Positions 8,800-60,768 of a DNA stretch of 64,000 nucleotides are shown piece after piece (the first letter of the stretch is position 1; each line of letters opens with the position of its first letter). The translations under genes and the position numbers were made by a program. Origin of the DNA: Escherichia coli (GTDB lineage Bacteria; Pseudomonadota; Gammaproteobacteria; Enterobacterales; Enterobacteriaceae); NCBI RefSeq assembly GCF_024298765.1, contig NZ_CP101210.1. One strand, given 5' to 3'. The notes below the pieces were generated by a model. The model had not been told where the DNA came from. It worked only from the letters and a program-made list of their open reading frames with translations, and did not search any database.

Positions 8800-9097
8800 A
8801 TCCCGTCGAGCATAAAATCTAATGCTCCTTTAATCAACGTTCGGTGCGCGCTGGCATCGCAAAATTTCGTTCCCAGCGCGTTAACTGGAACAGTTGCAGT
8901 CTCATGCGTCATGAGCCGTCTACCAGTAAAAGGATTGTGTTAAGCCGTTCTGGAGGGCGAATACGGATAAATCGTTCAATAGGTGTTAATGGAATAACAA
9001 TACGGCGATTAATCTCACCAATAATGTCGCTGGTAACATCGATAACAAAGGGAAACGCGGCGTTCCTGCCGCGACTGCGGTATACCGTAAATTGCAT
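8796..9097 (-). pseudogene. ccdB: ccdB-like gyrase-poison toxin gene, frameshifted: N-terminal 62 codons 9097-8912 then TGA; C-terminal part continues in another frame 8912-8796
   Basis: N-terminal ORF MQFTVYRSRGRNAAFPFVIDVTSDIIGEINRRIVIPL aligns with F-plasmid CcdB; conserved C-terminus [38 protein letters not shown] is read in a different frame immediately downstream. Confidence 0.7.
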
Positions 9098-9099
9098 CG

Positions 9100-9333
9100 C
9101 TAGAAGCTCCGGTACTCATCAGAGAAACATCCGGTTTCATCAGCCAATTGATTTAACGCAGCGATAGCTTCTGCGTTCTCTTCACGCCAACGTATTGCTG
9201 CATGTTTTTTAAGTTCAGCATTGAGCGCAACCGTAAGGGTGGCGCTCATATTTAAGCCTGCATCACGAGCGCGATTGACTAACTCACGGTCGACGGTGAC
9301 GGTCACACTTTGTGTGGTACGTTTTGCAGTCAT
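9100..9333 (-). CDS. ccdA: CcdA-like antitoxin
   Basis: 77-aa ORF with VTVTVD...W.EEN motif pattern similar to F-plasmid CcdA; stop is 2 nt before the ccdB-like ATG. Confidence 0.8.
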   Translation of the reverse strand: MTAKRTTQSVTVTVDRELVNRARDAGLNMSATLTVALNAELKKHAAIRWREENAEAIAALNQLADETGCFSDEYRSF

Positions 9334-9418
9334 GATATCGTGCTCCTGTACAATTTATACGTCTAGTAAACACGGATATCTGCACGTATCAGTGATGCCG
9401 GAATTCTAATATACAAAA

Positions 9419-14260: not shown

Positions 14261-15543
14261 AAAACGGTCACTCCTTTCATGCCATCCTTGATCAGATTGA
14301 TTAAGCCCACTTTCTTGCCGTGGCGGAGGATTTTCTTGCGCATCAGTTCCGGCGCACTGCCGTCAATGGTGAACAGGTCACGCGCCACGCCCACCGCCAG
14401 TTCCGGGTAGCCGCTAAACATGCGTGGGTTATCAAGGAACGCCGGTAGTTTCTGGTACATGCGCATATCGCGCAGCGGGCCACTCTCAAGATGCTGACGA
14501 TATTCCGCGAGTTTTTGCTTACTGAAATCGTCGCTTTTCATCGCTGAAAGCACAGTTTTTGCTGCTGCTTCCCCGGCGGCAATCGCCAGATCCATACCGC
14601 GAATGGTAAAACCGAGGTTCATACACATTCCGGCAGCATCACCGGCAATCAATACGCCGTCACCAACCAACTCCGGCAGCATGTTGATACCTGCTTCCGG
14701 CACTACGTGAGCGGAATATTCCACCAGCTTGCCGCCCGCGATCAGCGGTGCAACGGCCGGATGTTGTTTGAAATCTTCCAGCATTTGCGGCACCGATTTT
14801 TTTGCGTCATGCAGATGATGCAAACCACAAACCAGCCCCAGCGACAGGGTATTTTCATTGGTATAAAGGAAGCCACCGCCCATCAGGCCATCGGTGGGTG
14901 ATCCCGCAAACAGGCAAGCCGCGCCCTGATTACCCTGCAACTGAAAACGGTCTTCGATAACCGACTTCGGTAACTCGATCAGTTCCTTTACGCCAACCGC
15001 CACATCCGTCGGTTTAACGCGTTTTGCCATCCCCAGCTTTTCGGCAAGGATGGAATTCACCCCATCAGCAAGGATCACCGTTTTCGCTTCAATCACATCG
15101 CCATCGGCTTCTACACCGACGACTTTGCCATCGCGCTGTACGAGGTTATCGACGCGGATCCCGGTAATTAACTGCGCGCCCGCTTCTTCAGCCTGCTCCA
15201 TCAGCCAGGCATCAAATTTACTGCGCAAAACGGAGTAAGAACGCTGGGATGGCGAGGTTTCGTCGCCATTGCAGTAGTCCATAGTCATCGCTGACTTTTC
15301 CGTCATAAACGCGAGTTTTTCATGGGTGATCAGGCGTTCTACGGGGGCGGAGTCAGCGAAACCAGGAATAATGTGTTCCAGACTGTGGGCATAGAGACGC
15401 CCGCCGGTGACGTTCTTGGCACCTGCGGAATTGCCTCGCTCGATAACTAACACTTGCGCACCTTCGCGGGCGAGCACTAGTGCGGCAACCGAACCGGCAA
15501 GCCCTGCACCGACGATGATGGCGTCAAAGATATCTTCGGACAT
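14257..15543 (-). CDS. fixC: Flavoprotein oxidoreductase FixC
   Basis: 428-aa ORF with N-terminal FAD-binding GAGLAG motif. Confidence 0.93.
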   Translation of the reverse strand: MSEDIFDAIIVGAGLAGSVAALVLAREGAQVLVIERGNSAGAKNVTGGRLYAHSLEHIIPGFADSAPVERLITHEKLAFMTEKSAMTMDYCNGDETSPSQRSYSVLRSKFDAWLMEQAEEAGAQLITGIRVDNLVQRDGKVVGVEADGDVIEAKTVILADGVNSILAEKLGMAKRVKPTDVAVGVKELIELPKSVIEDRFQLQGNQGAACLFAGSPTDGLMGGGFLYTNENTLSLGLVCGLHHLHDAKKSVPQMLEDFKQHPAVAPLIAGGKLVEYSAHVVPEAGINMLPELVGDGVLIAGDAAGMCMNLGFTIRGMDLAIAAGEAAAKTVLSAMKSDDFSKQKLAEYRQHLESGPLRDMRMYQKLPAFLDNPRMFSGYPELAVGVARDLFTIDGSAPELMRKKILRHGKKVGLINLIKDGMKGVTVL

Positions 15544-15593
15544 AAGAGCTCCCTGTCAGCGGCAGGGCCAAAATGCAGCCCTGCCAGAGTGGA

Positions 15594-16535
15594 TCAACGC
15601 GCTAAAGCTGCGGTCAGTGCCGGAAGGATCTTCACGGCGTCGCCAACAATGCCGTAATCCGCGTACTGGAAGATCGGCGCATTTTTATCTTTGTTGATGG
15701 CGAAAATGGTTTGCGACGCATTAGCGCCAACCATGTGCTGGATCTGCCCGGAGATCCCCACCGCCAGGTACAGTTCAGGTTTCAGCATCAGGTTGGAGAT
15801 ACCGACATAGCGTTCGTGCTCCATCCATTTTTCGTTTTCCGCCACCGGACGAGAACAGGCCAACTCCGCACCTATCGCCTTGCAAAGCTGTTCTGCCAGC
15901 GCAATGTTCTCTTTGCTGCCAATACCGCGACCAACGCTGACCACCAGGCGGGCTTTGTCGAGATCGACGCTGTTGCTCTGACGCGCCTGGGTTGCCGTGC
16001 GGGTAATCGCCACAGCCGGAGCCTGCCACTCCACGGTGTGCGTTTCGCCAGTGCGTGACGCGTCTGGCTGAGCCACATCGAACGTGCCGCTGCTGATGGT
16101 CAGAACCGCATACGGCGTGGCAATGCGTTCTTCGCCAATCGCCAGACCGCCGTAAACCATGTGTTTCACTGTCGCTTTACCGTCCTGCACGCTAACAGCG
16201 CTGGCATCGTTAGACACCGCCGCGTTAAGGCGGTAACCCAGTTTCGCCGCCAGTAATTTGCCGCGACGGGTGTTTGGCAACAGCACCAGACCGTCTGCGC
16301 CGTGCTGGCGAATAGTGTCAGCCATGACACCGGCGTAATCTTCGATCATCCGCTCGTCCGGTTTGCCGCTTAATTTCCAGACATGATTAGCACCGAGCTG
16401 GATTGCCTGTGCGCCGTCGGCATCATTGAGGACGAACGTGTTGATTTGATTAGCTAAAGCCTGCGCACCGTTCATCAGTTCCGGCAGACGAGAAGGGGTA
16501 TCGCTGAATACCCAGACTTGAGAAAACGTGTTCAT
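15594..16535 (-). CDS. fixB: Electron transfer flavoprotein alpha-subunit homologue FixB
   Basis: 313-aa ORF; synteny in fixABCX. Confidence 0.93.
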
Positions 16536-16549
16536 AGCATCCCCTGTAA

Positions 16550-17320
16550 TTAAATGACTTTGCGAAGATTTTCAGCAAATGCGGCGATCTGTTCTTCGCC
16601 GTCGCCTTCAATCACGATGCGCTGACGCTCGCGCTGTTTCGGCGCGGCAACCTGTTGTTCTGACCAGGCTGCCTCTGCGTTAAAACCGATATCCGCCGCC
16701 GACCATACCTGGACTGGCTTTTTCGCCGCGCCGAGAATGGCTTTCATCGAAGGAATTTGTGGGGAGTTGATATCAGTGGAAACAGCAACAACCGCAGGCA
16801 GCGGAATGCTTAAGGTTTCTGTTTCATCTTCCAGTTCGCGCTCAACGGTGAGGGTATCTGCAGTCAGGGAGATAATTTTGCTGACGCCGTTAACTGCCGG
16901 AATATTAAGGATTTCGCCTACCAGCAAACCAACCTGCTGGGCATAAAGGTCGGAAGAACCATCGCCACAGAGGATCAAATCAAAGCCTGCTTTCTGAGCG
17001 GCTGCAGCCAGTACGCTCGCCGTTTGTTGCGGCAGTGCCTGCTCGAACTGGTCATCAATCACCACAATCAGTTCATCCGGACCGCGCGATAGCACATCTT
17101 TACGCCCTTTGGCGTTGGTCAGGGCTTTACCGCCCACACTTAAGGCCGTCACCTGCGCCTCTGCTGCCTGTTGCTTTAGCTGGCAAGCCGCTTCAATAGC
17201 GTTGAGATCGTATTGGCTTATTTTGGCATCGGCTTTGCTGAAGTCTAACGAACCATCAGCATTATTGACCGCAATATCCTGTTCATCAGGCACGCACTTA
17301 TAGCAAGTAATAATCTTCAT
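16550..17320 (-). CDS. fixA: Electron transfer flavoprotein beta-subunit homologue FixA
   Basis: 256 aa from ATG at 17320 ([15 protein letters not shown]). Confidence 0.93.
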
Positions 17321-19336: not shown

Positions 19337-20479
19337 ATGGATTTTAATTTAAATGATGAGCAGGAACTGTTTGTCGCCGGTATCCGCGAACTGATGGCCA
19401 GCGAAAACTGGGAGGCCTATTTTGCCGAGTGCGACCGTGACAGCGTCTACCCGGAACGTTTTGTCAAAGCACTGGCGGATATGGGTATCGACAGTCTGCT
19501 GATTCCTGAAGAGCACGGTGGTCTTGACGCGGGTTTTGTTACTCTCGCCGCCGTGTGGATGGAGCTGGGACGTCTGGGGGCACCAACCTATGTGCTGTAC
19601 CAGTTGCCGGGCGGGTTCAATACCTTCCTGCGCGAAGGCACACAAGAGCAGATCGACAAGATTATGGCTTTCCGCGGCACCGGTAAGCAGATGTGGAACT
19701 CAGCGATTACCGAACCGGGCGCGGGCTCCGACGTGGGTAGCCTGAAAACGACTTATACCCGTAGAAATGGTAAGATTTATCTTAATGGTAGTAAGTGTTT
19801 TATTACCAGCAGCGCCTACACCCCGTACATCGTGGTGATGGCGCGCGACGGGGCTTCTCCGGACAAACCTGTCTACACCGAATGGTTTGTTGATATGAGC
19901 AAACCGGGCATCAAAGTGACCAAACTTGAGAAGCTCGGTCTGCGTATGGATAGCTGCTGTGAAATCACTTTTGACGACGTGGAACTGGACGAGAAAGACA
20001 TGTTCGGTCGGGAAGGTAACGGATTTAACCGCGTCAAAGAAGAGTTCGACCATGAACGTTTCCTGGTAGCCCTGACCAACTACGGTACGGCGATGTGCGC
20101 CTTTGAAGATGCGGCGCGCTACGCCAACCAGCGCGTGCAGTTTGGCGAGGCTATTGGTCGTTTCCAGTTGATTCAGGAAAAATTCGCCCACATGGCGATC
20201 AAATTAAACTCCATGAAAAACATGCTGTATGAAGCAGCGTGGAAAGCAGACAACGGCACCATCACCTCTGGCGATGCAGCGATGTGCAAATACTTCTGCG
20301 CCAATGCGGCATTTGAAGTTGTGGATAGCGCAATGCAGGTGCTGGGCGGTGTCGGGATTGCGGGCAACCACCGCATCAGCCGCTTCTGGCGTGACCTGCG
20401 TGTAGACCGCGTCTCCGGAGGATCTGACGAAATGCAGATCCTGACGCTGGGTCGCGCGGTGCTGAAGCAATACCGCTAA
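19337..20479 (+). CDS. caiA: Crotonobetainyl-CoA reductase
   Basis: 380-aa acyl-CoA dehydrogenase-like ORF. Confidence 0.95.
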
Positions 20480-20489
20480 GTCCGTGCGC

Positions 20490-20562
<73 letters not shown>

Positions 20563-20578
20563 GTCATGCGCTACATAA

Positions 20579-21814
<1,236 letters not shown>

Positions 21815-31536: not shown

Positions 31537-32451
31537 TTACGGCACCAGAGCCAGCACCTCAGCTACCCACTGCTGGAAGCCTTTTACATTCAGATCCAAT
31601 GCCACCTGTACATTGGCTGGTTTGCCCAGGCAACCGTCGATATCAACCACCGTCGTGCCAGAGGTAAATTCGCCCTGCGTTTCCACTGCCACAAAACACG
31701 GCTTGAGGGTGAATAAGTCCGGGCGCACCAGCCAGGCGATGGCGCAGAGATCGTGCATTCGCAGTCCACTTTGCATACTGCCGCTACGGTAGTGACTAAA
31801 CAGGGCGTGGAGCATTTTTCCGGTGCGATTCAACTCCGGCAAAGTAGCGAGATAGTCAGGGGTTAATATTGCCTGATTGGTGACATCCAGACCGCACATG
31901 ACAATTTCGATTCCGCTACGGAAGACACAGGCAGCCGCTTCTGGATCGGCGGCGATATTAAACTCGGCATTTGGTGTACAGTTGCCGCGACCAGCAGAAC
32001 CGCCCATGATCACCAGACGACGAATATACTGTTTACATTCCGGGCATTGTGAAAGTAACAGCGCAATATTGGTTAACGGGCCAATGGCTACCAGCGTAAC
32101 AGGCTCTGGTGCACGCAGCAGGGCATCACGAATCGCCAGAAACGCTGGTATCTCGAGTGGCTTTCGGTTGTGCTCAACAAAGTCGTAGCCAGCCATTCCC
32201 GATTCACCGTGCACAGATGCCGCATCACGCGGTGCGCGTACCAGCGGTACGGCTGCGCCCTGGGCAAGCGGAATCTCCGCATTCCAGAAATGCAGCAGTT
32301 GCAGGGCGTTGCGGGTCGTTTTCTCAACCGAGACATTACCCGCGACGGTGGTCATCAGTTGCAGGTCGAGTTCGGGGGCAAAAATCGCGGCGGCAATGGC
32401 GACGGCATCGTCAATGCCGGGGTCAGTATCGAGGAAGATAGGTAAACGCAT
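31537..32451 (-). CDS. rihC: Non-specific ribonucleoside hydrolase
   Basis: 304 aa from ATG at 32451 ([15 protein letters not shown]). Confidence 0.92.
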
Positions 32452-32462
32452 GTTTTCTCCAT

Positions 32463-32532
32463 AAAAAATGCCGGTAACAAGACCGGCATTTTTTATGGAG
32501 AAAACATGCCGGTAACAAGACCGGCATTTTCG
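32463..32532 (-). terminator. Two tandem copies of a hairpin (GCCGGTCTTGTTACCGGC plus T-run) between ispH and rihC; likely terminators
   Basis: 38-bp periodic repeat; each copy is a GC-rich stem followed by T-run on the minus strand. Confidence 0.5.
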
Positions 32533-32554
32533 CATAACTTAGGCTGCTAATGAC

Positions 32555-33505
32555 TTAATCGACTTCACGAATATCGACACGCAACTCTTTCGGCACTTCG
32601 AAAACAATGTTTTCTTCACGACCTTCCAGCGGAATGGCTTCGCCACCGCCAAGCTGCTGTAAACGTGCGACTACGTTCTGTACCAGAATATCCGGAGCCG
32701 ATGCGCCCGCAGTCACGCCGACGCATTTAACCTCTTTCACCCACTCTTCCTGGATATCTTTCGCATCGTCAATCAAAAACGCGCGTTTGCCCATGCGCTG
32801 GGCCAGTTCCGCCAGACGGTTGGAGTTGGAGGAGTTTTTCGAACCGACCACCAGCACCACTTCCGCCTGTTCTGCCAGAGCGCGTACCGCTTCCTGACGG
32901 TTAGTAGTGGCGTAGCAGATGTCATCTTTGCGCGGACCGACAATTTTCGGGAAGCGTTTACGCAGCGCGTCGATCACATCAGACGTGTCATCCACCGACA
33001 GCGTGGTTTGGGTCATAAAGGAGAGCTTCTCTTCGTTTTTGACCGTCAGTTTCCACACATCGTCTGGCGATTCGACCAGATACATTCCCCCTTCCGGGTT
33101 GCTGTACTGACCCATTGTCCCTTCCACTTCCGGGTGACCGGCGTGGCCGATGAGAATAGATTCTTCGCCACGGCGACTGGCGCGGGCGACTTCCATATGC
33201 ACTTTGGTCACCAGCGGACAGGTGGCGTCGAATACCGTCAAATCACGGCTTTTCGCTTCGTTACGTACCGCCTGAGAAACACCGTGTGCGGAGAAAATCA
33301 GGATCGCGCCGTCCGGTACTTCGCTAATCTGCTCAATAAAGATAGCCCCACGCTCGCGCAGGCTATCGACCACATAGCGGTTATGCACCACTTCATGACG
33401 GACATATATCGGTGCGCCGTAAATGGCCAGCGCGTTTTCAACAATGCTGATAGCGCGGTCTACCCCGGCACAAAAACCACGCGGGTTGGCCAACAGGATC
33501 TGCAT
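32555..33505 (-). CDS. ispH: 4-hydroxy-3-methylbut-2-enyl diphosphate reductase
   Basis: 316 aa from ATG at 33505 ([19 protein letters not shown]). Confidence 0.95.
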
Positions 33506-34538: not shown

Positions 34539-37354
34539 CAGGCAAACTTACGTTTTTCACCGTCACCGGCGACGTTGCTGACACAGCGGCCGCAGATTTC
34601 TGCGTGTTCCGCCACCTTGCCGACATCCTGGGTGTAGTGCCAGCAGCGTGGGCACTTCTCACCTTCGGCTTTACTCAACGCGACTTTCAGCCCTTTGAGT
34701 ACTTCGCTCTGCTGAGCATCAGCAGGTGCATCGTTATAGTCTGCAACGGTAGCGCCGGAGGTCAACAGGACAAATCGTAATTCATCGCCCAGCGCGGTCA
34801 GTTTCGCCGCCAGTTCCGGTTCTGCATACAAGGTTACTGCCGCTTCCAGCGAGCCACCCACTTTCTTATCGGCACGCGCTTGCTCAATGACTTTGTTCAC
34901 TTCGCCACGCACTTTCAACAGCTCGTCCCAGAACGCATCGTTCATCGCTTCACTGTCTGCCAGACCAAACAGGCCTTCGTACCACTCACCGGTAAAGACG
35001 TATTTTTCACGTTCGCCCGGCAGATAGCCCCACACTTCATCAGCGGTGAAGGAGAGGATTGGTGCCATCCAGCGCACCAGCGCTTCAGCGATGTGATACA
35101 GCGCAGTCTGGCAGCTACGACGCGCCACGCTGTCCGCTTTGGCGGTATACTGACGGTCTTTGATGATGTCGAGGTAGAAGGAACCCATCTCAACGGAGCA
35201 GAAGCGCATCAGACGCTGTACCACTTCGTGGAAATCGTATGCTTCGTACGCCTTGAGGATGTCTTCCTGTGCCGCTTTCGCACAACCTACGGCCCAGCGA
35301 TCCAGTACCACCATCTCTTCCGGTTTCACCATATCTTTTGCCGGATCAAAACCGTTCAGGTTTGCCAGCAGGAAGCGCGCGGTGTTACGGATACGACGAT
35401 AGCTGTCGGCAGCACGTTTCAGGATCTCGTCAGAAACGGCCATTTCGCCAGTGTAGTCGGTTGATGCCACCCACAGACGCAGAATATCCGCACCCAGTTT
35501 GTTCATCACATCCTGCGGCGAAACGGTGTTACCGATGGATTTAGACATCTTGCGACCCTGACCATCCACGGTAAAGCCGTGAGTCAGTACCTGACGATAT
35601 GGCGCTTTGCCCTTCATCGCGGTAGAGATCATCAGGGAAGACATGAACCAGCCACGGTGTTGGTCAGAACCTTCCAGATACATGTCCGCTGCGTGACCGG
35701 CAAATTCCGGACGCACATCAACAACGGAAGAGTGGGTAGATCCGGAGTCAAACCATACATCCAGCGTATCCGGTACTTTCACATACTGGTCAGCTTCGTC
35801 GCCGAGGATCTCTTTCGCATCGAGATCCCACCACGCCTGAATGCCGTCAACTTCAACGCGTTTTGCCACTTCTTCCATCAGTTCGAGAGTACGCGGATGC
35901 AGTTCTTCTGTGTCTTTGTGCACGAACAGTGACATCGGCACGCCCCAGGTACGCTGACGAGAGATACACCAGTCAGGACGGTTAGCAACCATCGACTCGA
36001 TACGCGCCTGGCCCCAGTCAGGGATCCACTGCACACCTTTGATCTCTTTCAGTGACTGCGCACGCAGACCTTTCTGATCCATGCTGACGAACCACTGCGG
36101 CGTCGCGCGGAAGATGATCGGCGTTTTGTGACGCCAGCAGCACGGATAGCTGTGCTGCATTTTCTCAACGTGCAGCAGCGCGCCTTTTTCCTGCAGCAGC
36201 GCAACGACGATGTCGTTCGCTTTGAAGACGTTCACGCCATCCAGCGTCGGGTAAGTGCCCGGCAGATAAGTGCCGTCCGGGCCAACCGGGTTAGCGGTTT
36301 CCAGACCATATTTTTGACCGATCACATAGTCGTCCGGACCGTGGCCTGGCGCGGTATGAACGGCACCGGTACCGGCATCCAGCGTAACGTGGTCGCCGAG
36401 AATTGCCGGAACATCGAAGTCCATAAACGGATGGGTAAAGCGCAACAGTTCCAGCTCGGCACCTTTCACCGTGCCAAGAATGGTGTAATCGCTAACGCCG
36501 ATACGCTGCATTACGCTTTCAACCAGATCTTTCGCGAGGATCACGGCCTGACCGTCGATTTGCACCAGCGCATAATCAAAATCAGGTGCAATGGAGATTG
36601 CGCGGTTAGCAGGCAGCGTCCACGGCGTGGTGGTCCAGATAACCAGCGAAATTGGGCCGTTAACATTGCTTACGCCAAATTTCGTTTTCAGCGCATCCTG
36701 ATCGACCGCCTGGAAAGCGACGTCGATGGACGGAGAAGTTTTGTCGTAATACTCAACTTCCGCTTCTGCCAGTGCAGAACGGCAGTCAACGCACCAGTGC
36801 ACCGGCTTCGCGCCTTTGTGCAGGTGACCGTTGCCGATGATTTTGCCCAGCGCGCGGATGATGTTGGCTTCAGTTTTGAAGTCCATGGTCAGGTACGGGT
36901 GCGACCAGTCGCCCAGCACGCCCAGACGGATAAAGTCTTTGCGCTGACCGTCAACCTGGGTCGCAGCGTATTCGCGGCACTTGGCGCGGAACTCAGCGGC
37001 GGTGAATTTCTCCCCCGGCTTACCGTATTCTTGCTCTACTTTCAGTTCGATTGGCAGACCATGACAGTCCCAGCCAGGCACATACGGCGAGTCATATCCA
37101 GAAAGCCCTTTGGACTTAATGATAATGTCTTTCAGAATCTTGTTAACCGAGTGACCAATATGAATGCTGCCATTCGCATAAGGAGGGCCATCATGCAGAA
37201 TGAAGGTTTTTTTGCCTTTTTTAGCTGCACGAATGATGCCGTACAGATCATCATCAGTCCAACGCGCCAGCATTCCCGGTTCGCGCTTGGCGAGATCGCC
37301 ACGCATCGGGAACCCTGTTTCCGGCAAATTCAGGGTTGATTTATAGTCACTCAT
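34538..37354 (-). CDS. ileS: Isoleucyl-tRNA synthetase
   Basis: 938-aa ORF with HIGH (HIGH at N-term) and KMSKS motifs. Confidence 0.97.
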
Positions 37355-37396
37355 CAGATTCTCGGTTCCGTATTTCGGTTTGATTACATAACAGGC

Positions 37397-38338
37397 TTAA
37401 GCCGGTTTTGTTAGCCCAAAAAATTCGCGGGCGGTTAATTCATCACGCGCAATCTGCGCTTTCAGTTCGTCCAGCGATGCAAATCGCTGCTCATTGCGTA
37501 TTTTTTTACGCAGCACTACTTGTATATGGCGACCATAAAGGTCCATTGCAACATCTAACAAATGCACTTCCAGTTGCTGGCGAATACCGGCAACCGTTGG
37601 GCGTGTTCCGATGTTTGCAACGCCGGGTAACGGCTTTTCGCCAAGGCCCAACACTTCTACCGCATAAACCCCTTTCACCGGGGAAACCTGACGGCGTAGC
37701 GGTACATTCGCCGTCGGGAAACCTATAGTGCGCCCTAATTCATCACCGTGGACTACACGCCCGGAGATAGCAAACGGGTGCCCCAGTAAACTTTCTGCCA
37801 GAGCCAGATTGTCATCCGCAAGCGCCTGACGCACGGCGGTGCTGCTGATACGCACGCCACCTTCGCAAAAAGTTTGCGTGCTGGTGATATCGAAGCCGTA
37901 TTCCATGCCCGCTTTCTGTAATAACAAGAAATCGCCTTCACGACCAGCGCCAAAGCGGAAATCGTCACCTACGGCAAGAAATTTTACCCGCAAGTGCTTC
38001 ACCAGAAGATCACTGATGAAGTTTTGCGCGGTTAACGCCGCAAAACGCCTGTCAAAACGCACGCACAGCACGTAATCAACACCACACTCTGCAAGATAAC
38101 GCAGTTTTTCCCGCAGCCGGGTGAGCCGTGCCGGGGCTTTATCAGTAGCAAACAGTTCCAGTGGTTGAGGTTCAAAAAGCATCACCATCACCGGTAAGTT
38201 GCGCTTGCGCCCTTCTTCCTGCAAGCCCTGTAACAGCGCGCGATGACCGCGATGCACGCCGTCGAAATTACCAATAGTCAGCACACACCCTTCTTGCGGG
38301 GCCTGGCTGAGATTATGTATGCCGCGTATCAGCTTCAT
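37397..38338 (-). CDS. ribF: Bifunctional riboflavin kinase / FMN adenylyltransferase
   Basis: 313-aa ORF. Confidence 0.95.
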   Translation of the reverse strand: MKLIRGIHNLSQAPQEGCVLTIGNFDGVHRGHRALLQGLQEEGRKRNLPVMVMLFEPQPLELFATDKAPARLTRLREKLRYLAECGVDYVLCVRFDRRFAALTAQNFISDLLVKHLRVKFLAVGDDFRFGAGREGDFLLLQKAGMEYGFDITSTQTFCEGGVRISSTAVRQALADDNLALAESLLGHPFAISGRVVHGDELGRTIGFPTANVPLRRQVSPVKGVYAVEVLGLGEKPLPGVANIGTRPTVAGIRQQLEVHLLDVAMDLYGRHIQVVLRKKIRNEQRFASLDELKAQIARDELTAREFFGLTKPA

Positions 38339-38345
38339 GTCTGGC

Positions 38346-38564
38346 TCAAAACAGTGAAAATCGTCCGAGTATACCTTGTACAGCGGTCAAGGTTAACCGG
38401 CGATTGAGTGCCGAAATCAGAAAGAAGTGGCTTTTCATTGCTATGGCGCAAATCATGGGAAGAAACTGACCGCCTGCTGCAATTTTTCTCGCGGAAAAGC
38501 TGTATTCACACCCCGCAAGCTGGTAGAATCCTGCGCCATCACTACGTAACGAGTGCCGGCACAT
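38346..38564 (-). CDS. yaaY: Small hypothetical protein (72 aa); weak call
   Basis: ORF at the position of annotated yaaY in the ribF-rpsT divergent region; no functional evidence. Confidence 0.3.
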   Translation of the reverse strand: MCRHSLRSDGAGFYQLAGCEYSFSARKIAAGGQFLPMICAIAMKSHFFLISALNRRLTLTAVQGILGRFSLF

Positions 38565-38645
38565 TAACGGCGCTTATTTGCACAAATCCATTGACAAAAG
38601 AAGGCTAAAAGGGCATATTCCTCGGCCTTTGAATTGTCCATATAG

Positions 38646-38930
<285 letters not shown>

Positions 38931-38953
38931 TTGCCTGTTGTTGTCAGCTTTGT

Positions 38954-38981
38954 AAAAAAACCCGCTCTGGCGGGTTTTTTT
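38954..38981. terminator. Bidirectional rho-independent terminator between convergent rpsT and nhaR
   Basis: AAAAAAACCCGCTCTGGCGGGTTTTTTT: stem flanked by A-run and T-run. Confidence 0.8.
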
Positions 38982-39025
38982 ATATCCATCTGCAGGCCAA
39001 AATTCGGCCTGCAAAGTACAAATGT

Positions 39026-39931
39026 TTATTTTGAAGCTGGAGTAAACAGCGCAGAATAGTCTGTATTGCAGATACGCTGTACTGCAGGGTGCTGAATCAT
39101 CCTTTCGGCAAAAATCGCGTGGTACTCTTCCATCACGTTCTCAACACGGCCTATCTCCACAACCGAGTCATCGTTATAGAAATCATTAGCGTAAAGCGAA
39201 GGTGCAACGAAAATAGCGTTATGCGTCGCCCCAAAGGCTTTCATCAACGCAGCATCATCAAACTCACCCAAAATTTCGACGTTCAAGCCCTGGGAGTTAA
39301 ACCAGTTTAATAGCTTACGCCCCAACATTGAGCGACGCCCCGGAATAAGTAAACGACGCTCTTCAAGACAGGCAGGAAACGGCTTTTCTGGTAGTGGGTT
39401 AGTGCACCAGAAACTGACACCACATTCGCCAATTTTCATGGAAAACAGCCCTTCCTGCTGAGTGGAATCGATCGGACAGTCAGAGATGATCATATCCAGT
39501 TTATGCTGACTCAACTGCTCTAAAAGCATCTCGTGCGTCGATTCGAAACAGCGTAGATGGATCTGCTCGTCTTCCACAACTGCGGCATCCAGAACACTGC
39601 TGACCAGACGTTTGGAAAGTGCATCTGCCACACCAACATCAAACAATAAGTTGGATTCTTTGCGATAGTTCACGATATCCAGCATTTCCTGGCTTAAGGT
39701 GAACATTTTATCGGCATAGCGATAGACCAGCTCTCCCAGCTCGCTGGGCTCGAGGCCACGTCCCTTGCGCTTAAATAATTTGCCTTGCAGGCGCTCTTCC
39801 AGCGCCCGAATCTGTCCGGTAATGGTTTGTGGTGTTAAATAAAGCGCCTCCGCTGCGCCAACCACGGAACCTTCTTTATAGACATGCCAGAAGTAATACA
39901 AGTGGTTGTAATTGATATGAGACATGCTCAT
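39026..39931 (-). CDS. nhaR: LysR-family transcriptional activator of nhaA
   Basis: 301 aa from ATG at 39931 ([15 protein letters not shown]). Confidence 0.93.
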
Positions 39932-39990: not shown

Positions 39991-41157
39991 TCAAACTGAT
40001 GGACGCAAACGAACGCGTAACCAGCTGTATCCAATTACCGCCGAAGAGATAGAACCGACCAGGATACCGAGTTTCGCCCAGTTAATCAGTTCTGGATCTA
40101 CGCTACCAAAGGCCAGGCTGGCAATAAAGATAGACATAGTAAAACCGATACCGCACAGGATCCCCACCGCCATAATTTGCTGATAAGTCGTTCCCTCAGG
40201 CAGATGCGCCAGTTTCAAACGCAGCGCCAACCAGCAGAACAGACTAATCCCCAGCGGTTTGCCAATCAGCAAGCCAGCGATGATCCCCAATGGCAGAATG
40301 GAGGTCAAGCCATCCAGCGTGACGCCTTGCAGTGAAACGCCAGCATTAGCAAATGCAAACAGCGGTAAAATCAGATACGCCACCCACGGGTGCAACACAT
40401 GCTCCAGTCGCTTCGCTGGAGAACGCCCATGCTTCTCTTTCAAAGGAATAAAGAAGCCGACAATTACCCCCGCCAGGGTTGCGTGAACCCCCGATTTCAA
40501 CACCGCAGTCCACAACACCACGCCAACCAGAATATAGACGCCCGTGCGGCGTACACCACACAGATTCAATACCGCGAGTACCGCAATTGCTACAGCCGCG
40601 ACGCCAAGAGAGGCCATCGATAAGTCATTAGTGTAGAACAATGCGATGATAATGATGGCCCCAAGATCGTCGATAATAGCCAGAGCCATCAAAAAGATCT
40701 TCAGGGCTAACGGAACACGACTTCCCAACAGCGCCAGCACACCAAGTGCAAAAGCAATGTCAGTAGCCGCCGGGATCGCCCACCCTTCGCGGGTAATCGG
40801 ATCGGCATGGTTAAAGGCCAGATAGAGTAATGCCGGCACAATCATCCCACCAATAGCGGCGATAACTGGAAATGCAGCCTGGCGTAAGCTGGCTAGCGAT
40901 CCTTGCATCAGTTCACGTTTAACTTCCAGACCGACTAACAGGAAAAATACCGCCATCAGCGCGTCATTTATCCATAACAGCATGTTTTTGTTGATTTCGA
41001 GTGAACCAACCCGGAGCTGAACCGGCGTCTCCAGAAAGTCGTGATACCATCCACTGGTTGCGCCGCTGTTGGCCATAATCATCGCCAGGATAGCGGCAAT
41101 GATAAGAATAATGCCTCCCGAGGCATCACTGCTAAAGAATCGATGCAGATGTTTCAC
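39991..41157 (-). CDS. nhaA: Na+/H+ antiporter NhaA
   Basis: 388-aa polytopic membrane ORF. Confidence 0.95.
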
Positions 41158-41639
41158 TTTTTATTTCTCTTTCAGGTGAATAGATCGTTTTTACTATCTT
41201 ACCCCGCACGAATCATCGTTAAAATCAGATTATAGTGTAGGAATAATTCGCTTTTTACGAGGCATTGAAAGATTTGCGTCATCAGTGATGATATGAGTTT
41301 TTGACGGCTGTAAGCGCTGACGTGTGACCCTAAGCCCTGATAATCATAGCTTAAGGTAAGGATTTCTGAGGGATTAATTGGGAAAAGTAATAATTAATTT
41401 GTTGTCAGTCGGCGATGTTTGTTAGGCCAATACTTCAAAAATAATCCAGTTTGTCGTCAATAATTGCGATGAAGAGATAAATTAAAGTTAAATAATTAAA
41501 TCATTAAAAAATTACGCCATAAAAATGCGAGGCGTCTTCAGGATTAGAATCGATAAAACAGAATGGGTTAAAGAGAGCGATATAATAGCGGCGGGTGCTT
41601 GAGGCTGTCTGTCTCAGGCATTAGCTGAACGGCAGATAG

Positions 41640-41895: not shown

Positions 41896-41967
41896 GAGCA
41901 ACGGCGGGGAGTGATTCCCGCCACTTTTCAGGTGCTCGCATATCTTCAACGCACCCTGGTTTTACCC

Positions 41968-58005: not shown

Positions 58006-58404
58006 ATTGCCACTCTTCTTGATCAAATAACCGCGAACCGGGTGATCACTGTCAACTTATTACGCGGTGCAAATTTACAAACTCTTAACGTAAGTCGCAG
58101 AAAAAGCCCTTTACTTAGCTTAAAAAAGGCTAAACTATTTCCTGACTGTACTAACGGTTGAATTGTTAAAAAATGCTATATATCCTTCTGTTTACTTAGG
58201 ATAATTTTATAAAAAATAAATCTCGACAATTGGATTCACCACGTTTATTAGTTGTATGATGCAACTAGTTGGATTATTAAAATAATGTGACGAAAGCTAG
58301 CATTTAGATACGATGATTTCATCAAACTGTTAACGTGCTACAATTGAACTTGATATATGTCAACGAAGCGTAGTTTTATTGGGTGTCCGGCCCCTCTTAG
58401 CCTG

Positions 58405-58545
58405 TTATGTTGCTGTTAAAATGGTTAGGATGACAGCCGTTTTTGACACTGTCGGGTCCTGAGGGAAAGTACCCACGACCAAGCTAATGATGTTGTTGAC
58501 GTTGATGGAAAGTGCATCAAGAACGCAATTACGTACTTTAGTCAT
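58405..58545 (-). CDS. yjjY: Small hypothetical ORF (46 aa); weak call
   Basis: ATG at 58545 (MTKVR...) at the position of annotated yjjY upstream of arcA; no independent support. Confidence 0.3.
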   Translation of the reverse strand: MTKVRNCVLDALSINVNNIISLVVGTFPQDPTVSKTAVILTILTAT

Positions 58546-58640
58546 GTTACGCCGATCATGTTAATTTGCAGCATGCATCAGGCAGGTCAGGGACTTTTGT
58601 ACTTCCTGTTTCGATTTAGTTGGCAATTTAGGTAGCAAAC

Positions 58641-59357
58641 ATGCAGACCCCGCACATTCTTATCGTTGAAGACGAGTTGGTAACACGCAACACGTTGAAA
58701 AGTATTTTCGAAGCGGAAGGCTATGATGTTTTCGAAGCGACAGATGGCGCGGAAATGCATCAGATCCTCTCTGAATATGACATCAACCTGGTGATCATGG
58801 ATATCAATCTGCCGGGTAAGAACGGTCTTCTGTTAGCGCGTGAACTGCGCGAGCAGGCGAATGTTGCGTTGATGTTCCTGACTGGCCGTGACAACGAAGT
58901 CGATAAAATTCTCGGCCTCGAAATCGGTGCAGATGACTACATCACCAAACCGTTCAACCCGCGTGAACTGACGATTCGTGCACGCAACCTGCTGTCCCGT
59001 ACCATGAATCTAGGTACTGTCAGCGAAGAACGTCGTAGCGTTGAAAGCTACAAGTTCAATGGTTGGGAACTGGACATCAACAGCCGTTCGTTGATCGGCC
59101 CTGATGGCGAGCAGTACAAGCTGCCGCGCAGCGAGTTCCGCGCCATGCTTCACTTCTGTGAAAACCCAGGCAAAATTCAGTCCCGTGCTGAACTGCTGAA
59201 GAAAATGACCGGCCGTGAGCTGAAACCGCACGACCGTACTGTAGACGTGACGATCCGCCGTATTCGTAAACATTTCGAATCTACGCCGGATACGCCGGAA
59301 ATCATCGCCACCATTCACGGTGAAGGTTATCGCTTCTGCGGTGATCTGGAAGATTAA
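58641..59357 (+). CDS. arcA: Aerobic respiration control response regulator ArcA
   Basis: 238-aa OmpR-family [36 protein letters not shown]. Confidence 0.97.
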
Positions 59358-59374
59358 TCGGCTTTACCACCGTC

Positions 59375-59405
59375 AAAAAAACGGCGCTTTTTAGCGCCGT
59401 TTTTA
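59375..59405. terminator. Bidirectional terminator between convergent arcA and creD
   Basis: AAAAAAACGGCGCTTTTTAGCGCCGTTTTT. Confidence 0.8.
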
Positions 59406-59415
59406 TTTTTCAACC

Positions 59416-60768
59416 TTATTTCCAGATACGTAATTCATCGTCCATTGTAACGTCTTTACTGGCTTTCATTTTCGGCAGTGAAAACGCATACCAGTCGATA
59501 TTACGGGTCACAAACATCATGCCAGCCAGCGCCACCACCAGCACACTGGTTCCCAACAACAGCGCGCTATCGGCAGAGTTGAGCAGTCCCCACATCACAC
59601 CATCCAGCAACAACAGCGCGAGGGTAAACAACATGCTGTTGCACCAACCTTTCAATACCGCCTGCAAATAAATACCGTTCATTATCGCCCCAATCAGACT
59701 GGCGATTATCCATGCCACGGTAAAACCGGTATGTTCAGAAAGCGCCAGCAAGAGCAAATAAAACATCACCAATGAAAGCCCCACCAGCAAATATTGCATT
59801 GGGTGTAAACGTTGCGCGGTGAGCGTTTCAAAAACAAAGAACGCCATAAAAGTCAGTGCAATCAGCAGAATGGCGTACTTAGTCGCCCGGTCAGTTAATT
59901 GGTATTGATCGGCTGGCGTCGTTACTGCGACGCTAAACGCCGGGAAGTTTTCCCAGCCGGTATCATTGCCTGAAGCAAAACGCTCACCGAGATTATTAGC
60001 AAACCAGCTGCTTTGCCATTGCGCCTGAAAACCTGACTCACTAACTTCCCGTTTGGCTGGTAGAAAATCACCTAAAAAACTGGGATGCGGCCAGTTGCTG
60101 GTTAAGGTCATTTCGCTATTACGCCCGCCAGGCACCACAGAAAGATCGCCGGTACCGCTTAAATTCAGTGCCATATTCAGCTTCAGGTTCTGCTTCCGCC
60201 AGTCCCCTTCGGGTAAAGGGATATGCACGCCCTGCCCGCCTTGCTCTAACCCGGTGCCGGGTTCAATGGTCAGCGCCGTTCCGTTAACTTCAGGCGCTTT
60301 CACCACACCAATACCACGCGCATCCCCGACGCTAATCACAATAAATGGCTTGCCTAAGGTGATATTTGGCGCGTTGAGTTCGCTAAGACGCGAAACATCG
60401 AAATCGGCTTTTAGCGTTAAATCACTGTGCCAGACCTGACCGGTATAAATCCCTATCTTGCGTTCTTCCACGTTCTGATTGCCATCAACCATCAATGACT
60501 CAGGTAACCAAAAATGGATAAAACTTCGTTTCCGCTCCACGGTTTTATCCTCTTCCTGCACCGTATAAAGCTCGGTCACAGGAATAGCGATGAGCGGCCC
60601 AACGAGTTTTTGCGGCCCGCTGGTACTTTGGCGAATCGCATCTTCCACATCGCTACGGTAATCAGCACGTTCGACAATCACCTGCCGAATCAGCATTATC
60701 GGAATCAACAACAGCAATACTGCACCAAACAGGCTAGTCATTTTCCAGAACAGGGGGGATTTCAACAT
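59416..60768 (-). CDS. creD: Inner membrane protein CreD
   Basis: 450-aa membrane ORF. Confidence 0.93.
   Translation of the reverse strand: MLKSPLFWKMTSLFGAVLLLLIPIMLIRQVIVERADYRSDVEDAIRQSTSGPQKLVGPLIAIPVTELYTVQEEDKTVERKRSFIHFWLPESLMVDGNQNVEERKIGIYTGQVWHSDLTLKADFDVSRLSELNAPNITLGKPFIVISVGDARGIGVVKAPEVNGTALTIEPGTGLEQGGQGVHIPLPEGDWRKQNLKLNMALNLSGTGDLSVVPGGRNSEMTLTSNWPHPSFLGDFLPAKREVSESGFQAQWQSSWFANNLGERFASGNDTGWENFPAFSVAVTTPADQYQLTDRATKYAILLIALTFMAFFVFETLTAQRLHPMQYLLVGLSLVMFYLLLLALSEHTGFTVAWIIASLIGAIMNGIYLQAVLKGWCNSMLFTLALLLLDGVMWGLLNSADSALLLGTSVLVVALAGMMFVTRNIDWYAFSLPKMKASKDVTMDDELRIWK

Follow-up and report, generated by a model that had tools for sequence, protein, structure and literature searches.

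An empty rpsT–nhaR slot with a linked, divergent nhaR 3′ block in an ST117-like Escherichia coli

Convergent genes, a 95-bp spacer and two predicted hairpins

The window analysed here is a stretch of 64,000 nucleotides of Escherichia coli DNA (contig NZ_CP101210.1, assembly GCF_024298765.1), in which rpsT, encoding the 87-aa ribosomal protein S20 (38667–38930, plus strand; Pfam Ribosomal_S20p, E = 2e-30), converges on nhaR, encoding the LysR-type activator of nhaA (39026–39931, minus strand). Their stop codons face each other, at 38928–38930 for rpsT and 39026–39028 for nhaR, leaving exactly 95 bp between them (38931–39025); stop codons and open reading frame coordinates thus agree with a preliminary description of this DNA, which had put the spacer at only 95 bp. 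The S20 protein (WP_001274021.1) is unchanged in every E. coli record inspected, and rpsT is 90–99% identical at the nucleotide level in nearly all enterobacterial genera sampled, with a minimum of 86.7%. NhaR, which measures 301 aa from an upstream ATG or 299 aa with the K-12 start, contains the Pfam domains HTH_1 (residues 9–67, 63 bits) and LysR_substrate (residues 98–287, 45.6 bits), both exceeding the cut-offs, and is assigned on these two domains together with the location of its gene directly downstream of nhaA (39991–41157, same strand). The same protein, WP_000062878.1, is annotated in CFT073, APEC O2-211 and strain 104, the DNA of the last being that of the window at the nhaR locus. 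Convergence of nhaR and rpsT across a short spacer, of 52–210 bp, is the norm in other genera of the Enterobacteriaceae, including Citrobacter, Salmonella arizonae and diarizonae, Enterobacter, Klebsiella and others.

RNA folding of both strands predicts two hairpins within the 95 bp, and the spacer folds far more stably than its shuffled versions (z = −5.45 and −6.04 for the two strands), none of 200 shuffles being equally stable. The first hairpin, at 38954–38981, is formed by the motif A7-CCCGC-TCTG-GCGGG-T7, from which a GC stem followed by a U-run is predicted on either strand, the arrangement of a bidirectional Rho-independent terminator common to rpsT and nhaR; it would therefore end transcription arriving from both directions. 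A strong Rho-independent terminator has been described after rpsT in K-12 (PMC12428005). Across eight aligned taxa from six genera, neither the stem nor the T-run varies, and the sequences part ways directly after ...TTTTTTTAT, at window position 38983. A simple terminator scan did not flag 38954–38981, probably because the A and T runs pair and lengthen the stem, and a search of 38300–39300 against Rfam gave no family at the gathering score, the weak matches being generic terminator hairpins.

The second hairpin, at ~38990–39014 on the minus strand, adjoins the nhaR stop codon, with arms CTGCAGGCC and GGCCTGCA that form 8 pairs on the plus strand and 12 pairs, G-U included, on the nhaR-sense strand. 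It is without a U-run of its own, is missing from the K-12 sequence, and has an equivalent at the same place in Escherichia marmotae. The spacer had been described as containing a single bidirectional terminator: the terminator stands as a prediction, and the second hairpin removes the word “single”.

The K-12 layout and the occupants of the slot

Comparison of the whole window with positions 1–66000 of K-12 MG1655 by blastn gave five collinear blocks of ~97–98.7% identity each. At the locus, 52 bp of the window (38984–39035) occupy the place of 1,151 bp in MG1655 (19610–20760), where the annotation shows a 138-bp fimbrial pseudogene alongside IS1A. Both genomes have the same flanking genes, with an identical rpsT and the same terminator architecture, whereas MG1655 lacks the contiguous spacer and has instead IS1A between two island remnants, followed by a different nhaR 3′ end (80% identical). 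The IS1 copy that the preliminary description placed in this neighbourhood in K-12 is therefore real: it is present in the MG1655 annotation and has been reported to lie between rpsT and nhaAR, immediately beyond the terminator of rpsT (PMC12428005). Its absence from the window was also correctly read, as blastn with MG1655 IS1A (768 bp, insA/insB) gave no match between rpsT and nhaR or anywhere else in the 64 kb. Likewise, IS186, the 6.9-kb island OI-1 of strain CB9615 and the MFS/GH31 genes described below had no blastn match in the window.

The K-12 element is not a simple insertion. It is bordered on one side by 249 bp and on the other by 185 bp, corresponding to opposite ends of CB9615 OI-1, and IS1A stands in for 6,505 bp of that island with no target-site duplication, which marks it as the scar of an IS1-mediated 6.5-kb deletion inside OI-1, as opposed to an insertion into a short spacer. 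The K-12 line thus descends from an ancestor with an OI-1-bearing haplotype, in which IS1A deleted 6.5 kb of the island.

Elsewhere in the window, the other K-12 markers tested also differ. MG1655 15390–16726, which holds IS186 (annotated as IS421) between dnaJ and mokC, is missing, and the block structure of the MG1655 alignment leaves an uninterrupted target with a single GGGGAGTGATTCCCGCC copy at 41907–41918. An extra segment relative to MG1655 lies between apaH and folA at 8801–9409 (minus strand), where open reading frames and the Pfam families CcdA and CcdB identify a chromosomal ccdA and a truncated ccdB; ccdA and ccdB are annotated at the same apaH/folA site in CFT073. Within the ccd module (8909–9333, minus strand) ccdA is intact (77 aa, 9100–9333) and ccdB, which has lost 13 bp (GCAAAGAATATGT) in comparison with CFT073, encodes only 62 aa, so that the toxin gene looks inactivated and the antitoxin gene kept. 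Between djlA and rluA, 119 bp (877–995) replace ~1.5 kb of K-12 sequence holding yabP, yabQ and a transposase fragment (MG1655 58177–59685); the corresponding gap in CFT073 is likewise short, at ~117 bp, with nothing annotated inside. All four markers (IS1A, IS186, the lack of ccd at folA/apaH, and yabP/yabQ) thus distinguish the window from K-12, and the missing IS186, the ccd insertion and the non-K-12 background proposed from the sequence at the outset all hold. Identity points the same way, at ~97–98.7% to MG1655 versus 99.96–99.99% to APEC O2-211.

The occupancy of the slot was counted in 5,426 complete E. coli genomes. The empty state of the window, contiguous and with at least 99% identity, is found in 556 of these; 640 carry genes for an MFS transporter and a GH31 hydrolase; and 4,227 carry OI-1 or its remnants, the island being largely intact in 1,193 and the group including the K-12 layout (574 genomes). 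Together the three states take in 5,423 of the 5,426. In the majority of E. coli genomes the match to the window stops at 38983, directly 3′ of the terminator, which is where homology among all slot haplotypes ends. The absence of IS1 excludes K-12 and is otherwise weakly diagnostic taken alone, because the K-12 layout is confined to 574 of the 5,426 genomes; more telling is which of the three states a genome has.

The best-known occupant is OI-1 of O157:H7 and O55:H7, which fills exactly the space between rpsT and nhaR, beginning immediately beyond the rpsT terminator (38983) and extending to the stop codon of nhaR. In O55:H7 CB9615 and in IAI39 it consists of espX1 and a four-gene chaperone-usher fimbrial operon, ~6.9 kb in all; espX1 corresponds to Z0025, within OI-1 (PMC4060028). 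These genes, espX1 and those for fimbrial subunit, chaperone, usher and adhesin-like proteins, are wholly absent from the window. Many genomes have a variant with 64% coverage of OI-1 and a truncated usher gene. The MFS transporter and GH31 glycoside hydrolase genes occupy the slot in JJ1886 (ST131) and strain R8, and in 74 genomes this module is only 80–90% identical to the ST131 version, a distance similar to that of E. whittamii and Escherichia sp. E1V33. The empty state is shared by CFT073, the spacer of which is the same 95 bp, and by UTI89, UM146, Nissle 1917, ATCC 25922, E2348/69, the type strain DSM 30083 and APEC O2-211. Two further genomes stand out: STLEFF_47 (NZ_CP058874.1) has an IS3-family element in an otherwise window-identical empty spacer, at the equivalent of ~38984–38987, directly after the rpsT terminator and at the divergence point of all island haplotypes, and the complete genome NZ_CP148133.1 matches a query of 38900–39700 at the rpsT end only.

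The 95-bp spacer is, then, the unoccupied state of a known variable rpsT/nhaR slot, the site of OI-1 in O157:H7, and the arrangement is an ordinary one, already present in hundreds of published genomes. Short-read assemblies do tend to fragment or collapse at IS elements, and nothing else speaks for the idea that assembly removed a repeat, for example IS1, from the window; the identical contiguous junction in 556 complete genomes, mostly long-read or finished, excludes such an artefact.

A divergent nhaR 3′ block on a B2-like tract

The difference from K-12 does not end at the spacer. Over nhaA and the first ~300 nt of nhaR the window is 99–100% identical to MG1655, and from ~39635 to the nhaR stop identity falls to 72–88% per 100 bp. 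Informative sites place the left edge of the divergent block at 38984 and its right edge between 39599 and 39608; the block (38984–~39600, ~617 bp) therefore comprises the last 42 bp of the spacer, including the second hairpin, and the 3′ ~575 nt of nhaR, which encode the effector-binding domain. It is 80% identical to its counterparts in MG1655, JJ1886, IAI39 and CB9615, which are 96–98% identical to one another; these are here called class II, and the allele of the window class I. Between the two classes synonymous sites in the block are saturated (pS 0.73), with a dN of 0.05 and a dN/dS of about 0.02, compared with a pS of 0.18–0.23 and a dN of 0 in the 5′ part of nhaR. For scale, the same 3′ block gives a pS of 0.51 between MG1655 and E. 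albertii, and of 0.76–0.78 between either class and Citrobacter. The effector domain departs from that of K-12 NhaR at 15 residues; the reading frame is intact and, by these measures, strongly constrained by purifying selection.

The split is strictly bimodal. Among the 5,426 genomes, 556 have the block at 99% identity or more, 4,868 at 80–90% and one at 90–95%, and the 5′, HTH-coding part of nhaR presents no such class split. What the window carries is not K-12 minus IS1: the slot as a whole is of another haplotype, which is free of OI-1 remnants and has a ~20% divergent nhaR 3′ block. Deletions in the slot are common, as the IS1-mediated 6.5-kb loss in K-12, the 64%-coverage variant of OI-1 and the remnants in E. 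albertii illustrate, and a former IS1 or island might be imagined to have been precisely excised to leave a clean spacer. Deletion cannot, however, yield ~20% divergence with saturated synonymous sites over 575 nt of nhaR; moreover, the window retains no remnant of OI-1, MFS/GH31 or IS1, and the 42 bp at 38984–39025 are unrelated to the K-12 and OI-1 junction sequences. Simple loss is for these reasons very improbable.

The same contrast is found within phylogroup B2. CFT073 and JJ1886, both B2, are identical in the 5′ 330 nt of nhaR and B2-type on the rpsT side, and are ~20% different inside the block. The junctions of the B2 ExPEC strains CFT073, UTI89, UM146, Nissle 1917, ATCC 25922, E2348/69 and DSM 30083 are like that of the window, the spacer and class I block being 100% identical in CFT073 and 99.3–100% in the others, and the NhaR protein of CFT073 is the same as that of the window. 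Unlike CFT073, the window has a K-12/IAI39-type nhaR 5′ end and nhaA, 5–7% different from the B2 references. It also differs from CFT073, JJ1886 and IAI39, references for B2 and F, in that the island of OmpK, sulfatase and hypothetical genes which these carry between mokC and nhaA is absent, as it is from K-12. Identity to MG1655 dips to 88–93% at 41236–41435, the place where the OmpK/sulfatase island would sit.

Against APEC O2-211, an ST117 strain (PMC6256689), the window is 99.956% identical over 27,315 bp and 99.992% over 13,031 bp, with 13 mismatches in a total of 40.3 kb, over which gene order is shared and no structural difference was found; identity to CFT073 is ~98.4% overall. This near-identity and collinearity with an ST117 reference mark the window as probably derived from a poultry-type, ST117-like (phylogroup G) E. 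coli. At 32001–33000, in the neighbourhood of rihC and dapB, identity to MG1655 and to CFT073 is ~92% in each case, the lowest of any 1-kb stretch of the common backbone; CFT073 and R8 have an additional DUF805 gene there, and MG1655 and APEC O2-211 do not.

Against this background, a tract of 3.4 kb at 36258–39655, which carries the class I block, is nearly identical to B2 strain CFT073, with 5 differences. Its flanks differ from CFT073 by ~2% on the left and 5–7% on the right, and the right-hand transition is sharp: B2-type sites at 39608–39650 give way from 39656 to a nhaR 5′ end and nhaA of the K-12/IAI39 type. The exact junction at 39650–39656 recurs in 74 genomes, many from birds; among them are APEC O2-211, other ST117-like avian E. 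coli and O78:H4 APEC. The simplest reading is that ~3.4 kb were imported from a B2 donor into the ST117-like lineage, although this direction is suggested by the structure of the tract only. The phylogroups of the 556 empty-slot genomes, for their part, were extrapolated from a handful of named strains.

Relatives in other species and a proposed exchange of the slot as a cassette

A wider search for the source of the class I block compared the C-terminal domain of NhaR with 100,044 species-representative genomes. Among the matches listed, the best protein identity was 95%, in Citrobacter sedlakii, and none had a nucleotide identity above 82%. The species representatives were complemented by protein database clusters built at 90% identity, the members of which led to an allele in E. 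marmotae (GCA_031194715.1, one isolate). This isolate has an empty slot, a 102-bp spacer, two hairpins and a class I nhaR, and its NhaR is 98% identical to that of the window over the whole protein; in this one isolate the block is 89.8% identical in nucleotides. With ~10% nucleotide divergence, E. marmotae was rejected as the immediate donor, and no E. coli genome has a closer copy. The E. marmotae and E. coli class I alleles differ by about the distance between the species.

Class II has relatives of its own, being 86–91% identical to alleles in E. albertii, E. whittamii, Escherichia sp. E1V33 and a species representative labelled “E. coli”, the slots of which hold OI-1 remnants or MFS+GH31 at ~88% identity. 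In E. whittamii and E1V33 the slot contains MFS+GH31 and the nhaR 3′ allele groups with the JJ1886 type, and in E. albertii only degraded remnants are left. A third mosaic nhaR was observed in Escherichia sp. MOD1-EC7003: over its 5′ 330 nt it is 91–94% identical to the E. coli sequences compared, and over its 3′ part identity is 78% to either E. coli class and 82% to Klebsiella pneumoniae. The slot of this genome corresponds to none of the three states counted in E. coli.

In nucleotide neighbour-joining trees, class I is sister to all class II alleles with 82–84% bootstrap support, and the protein tree is without resolution. Class I could be the older resident allele in the genus, because the short spacing of nhaR and rpsT is found family-wide, the class I protein is the nearer to Citrobacter (non-synonymous distance 0.035 versus 0.065 for class II) and the E. 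marmotae allele lies at species distance. The same three observations favour a purely vertical account, in which the tight junction and class I were ancestral in Escherichia and retained here, the islands and the class II 3′ end having been imported elsewhere. Such an account has to accommodate a class I that is present in only ~10% of E. coli, as a subset of B2 plus 74 ST117-like genomes, and a block diversity of only 0–0.5% among the 556 genomes that carry it. It also conflicts with the behaviour of class II, which tracks species distances in E. albertii, E. whittamii and E1V33 and is accompanied there by filled slots, and with the 3.4-kb tract, where 5 differences from CFT073 between flanks differing by 2–7% have the signature of import. 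We regard vertical retention as unlikely, if less so than simple loss.

The explanation we favour, and consider probable, is that the empty haplotype and its linked nhaR block move as a cassette by homologous recombination, and that they reached the ST117-like lineage on a B2-like tract; the mechanism, its direction and the function of the terminator are read from sequence comparison. In E. coli the empty state is physically linked to the block at 38984–~39600, itself diverged from the common allele to near genus level. Of the two crossovers, one would lie within the ultra-conserved stretch of rpsT and its terminator, or further left, and the second within the 5′, HTH-coding portion of nhaR, which is likewise conserved, so that a swap would exchange the nhaR 3′ end together with the occupant of the slot. 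Breakpoints are consistent with such anchors, the left one being at the same base, 38983, in every haplotype and the right one at the start of the effector-domain coding region. Joint exchange of this kind would explain why slot content is linked to the nhaR 3′ allele. Since CFT073 and JJ1886 differ only between the anchors, one replacement event would suffice to separate them within B2. Many lineages of B2, among them ST73 and ST95, appear to be fixed for the empty haplotype, which would have entered the ST117-like lineage secondarily, on the ~3.4-kb tract at 36258–39655.

A broader proposition is that the nhaR effector region and the slot form a single exchangeable cassette with three old states, namely empty with class I, MFS+GH31 with class IIb and OI-1 with class IIa, maintained as a long-lived polymorphism across Escherichia species rather than arising from sporadic recent imports. 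The three states do recur at species-level divergence: empty in E. marmotae, MFS+GH31 in E. whittamii and E1V33, and OI-1 remnants in E. albertii. A long-lived cassette polymorphism behind the nhaR mosaic is plausible but unproven, and we put it forward tentatively, as an idea with less in its favour than against it.

Taken as a whole, these findings will not surprise a specialist in E. coli population genomics. Their practical use is as a marker: the locus places the window outside K-12 and, together with its flanks, in an ST117-like, avian-associated lineage. They also put K-12 in perspective, as its IS1 scar in OI-1 makes it the derived, damaged state at this locus and not the reference from which other strains deviate. 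The divergent 3′ block of nhaR provides a clean example of conserved genes, here rpsT and the HTH-coding end of nhaR, that would serve as anchors for recombination. To our knowledge, all NhaR biochemistry has been performed on the K-12 gene, and for ~10% of E. coli, CFT073, UTI89 and Nissle among them, the sequence of nhaR cannot be equated with that gene. Should the long-lived cassette polymorphism prove true, the 15 amino-acid differences in the sensing domain of NhaR might give rise to different Na+ and pH responses, tied to the content of the slot.
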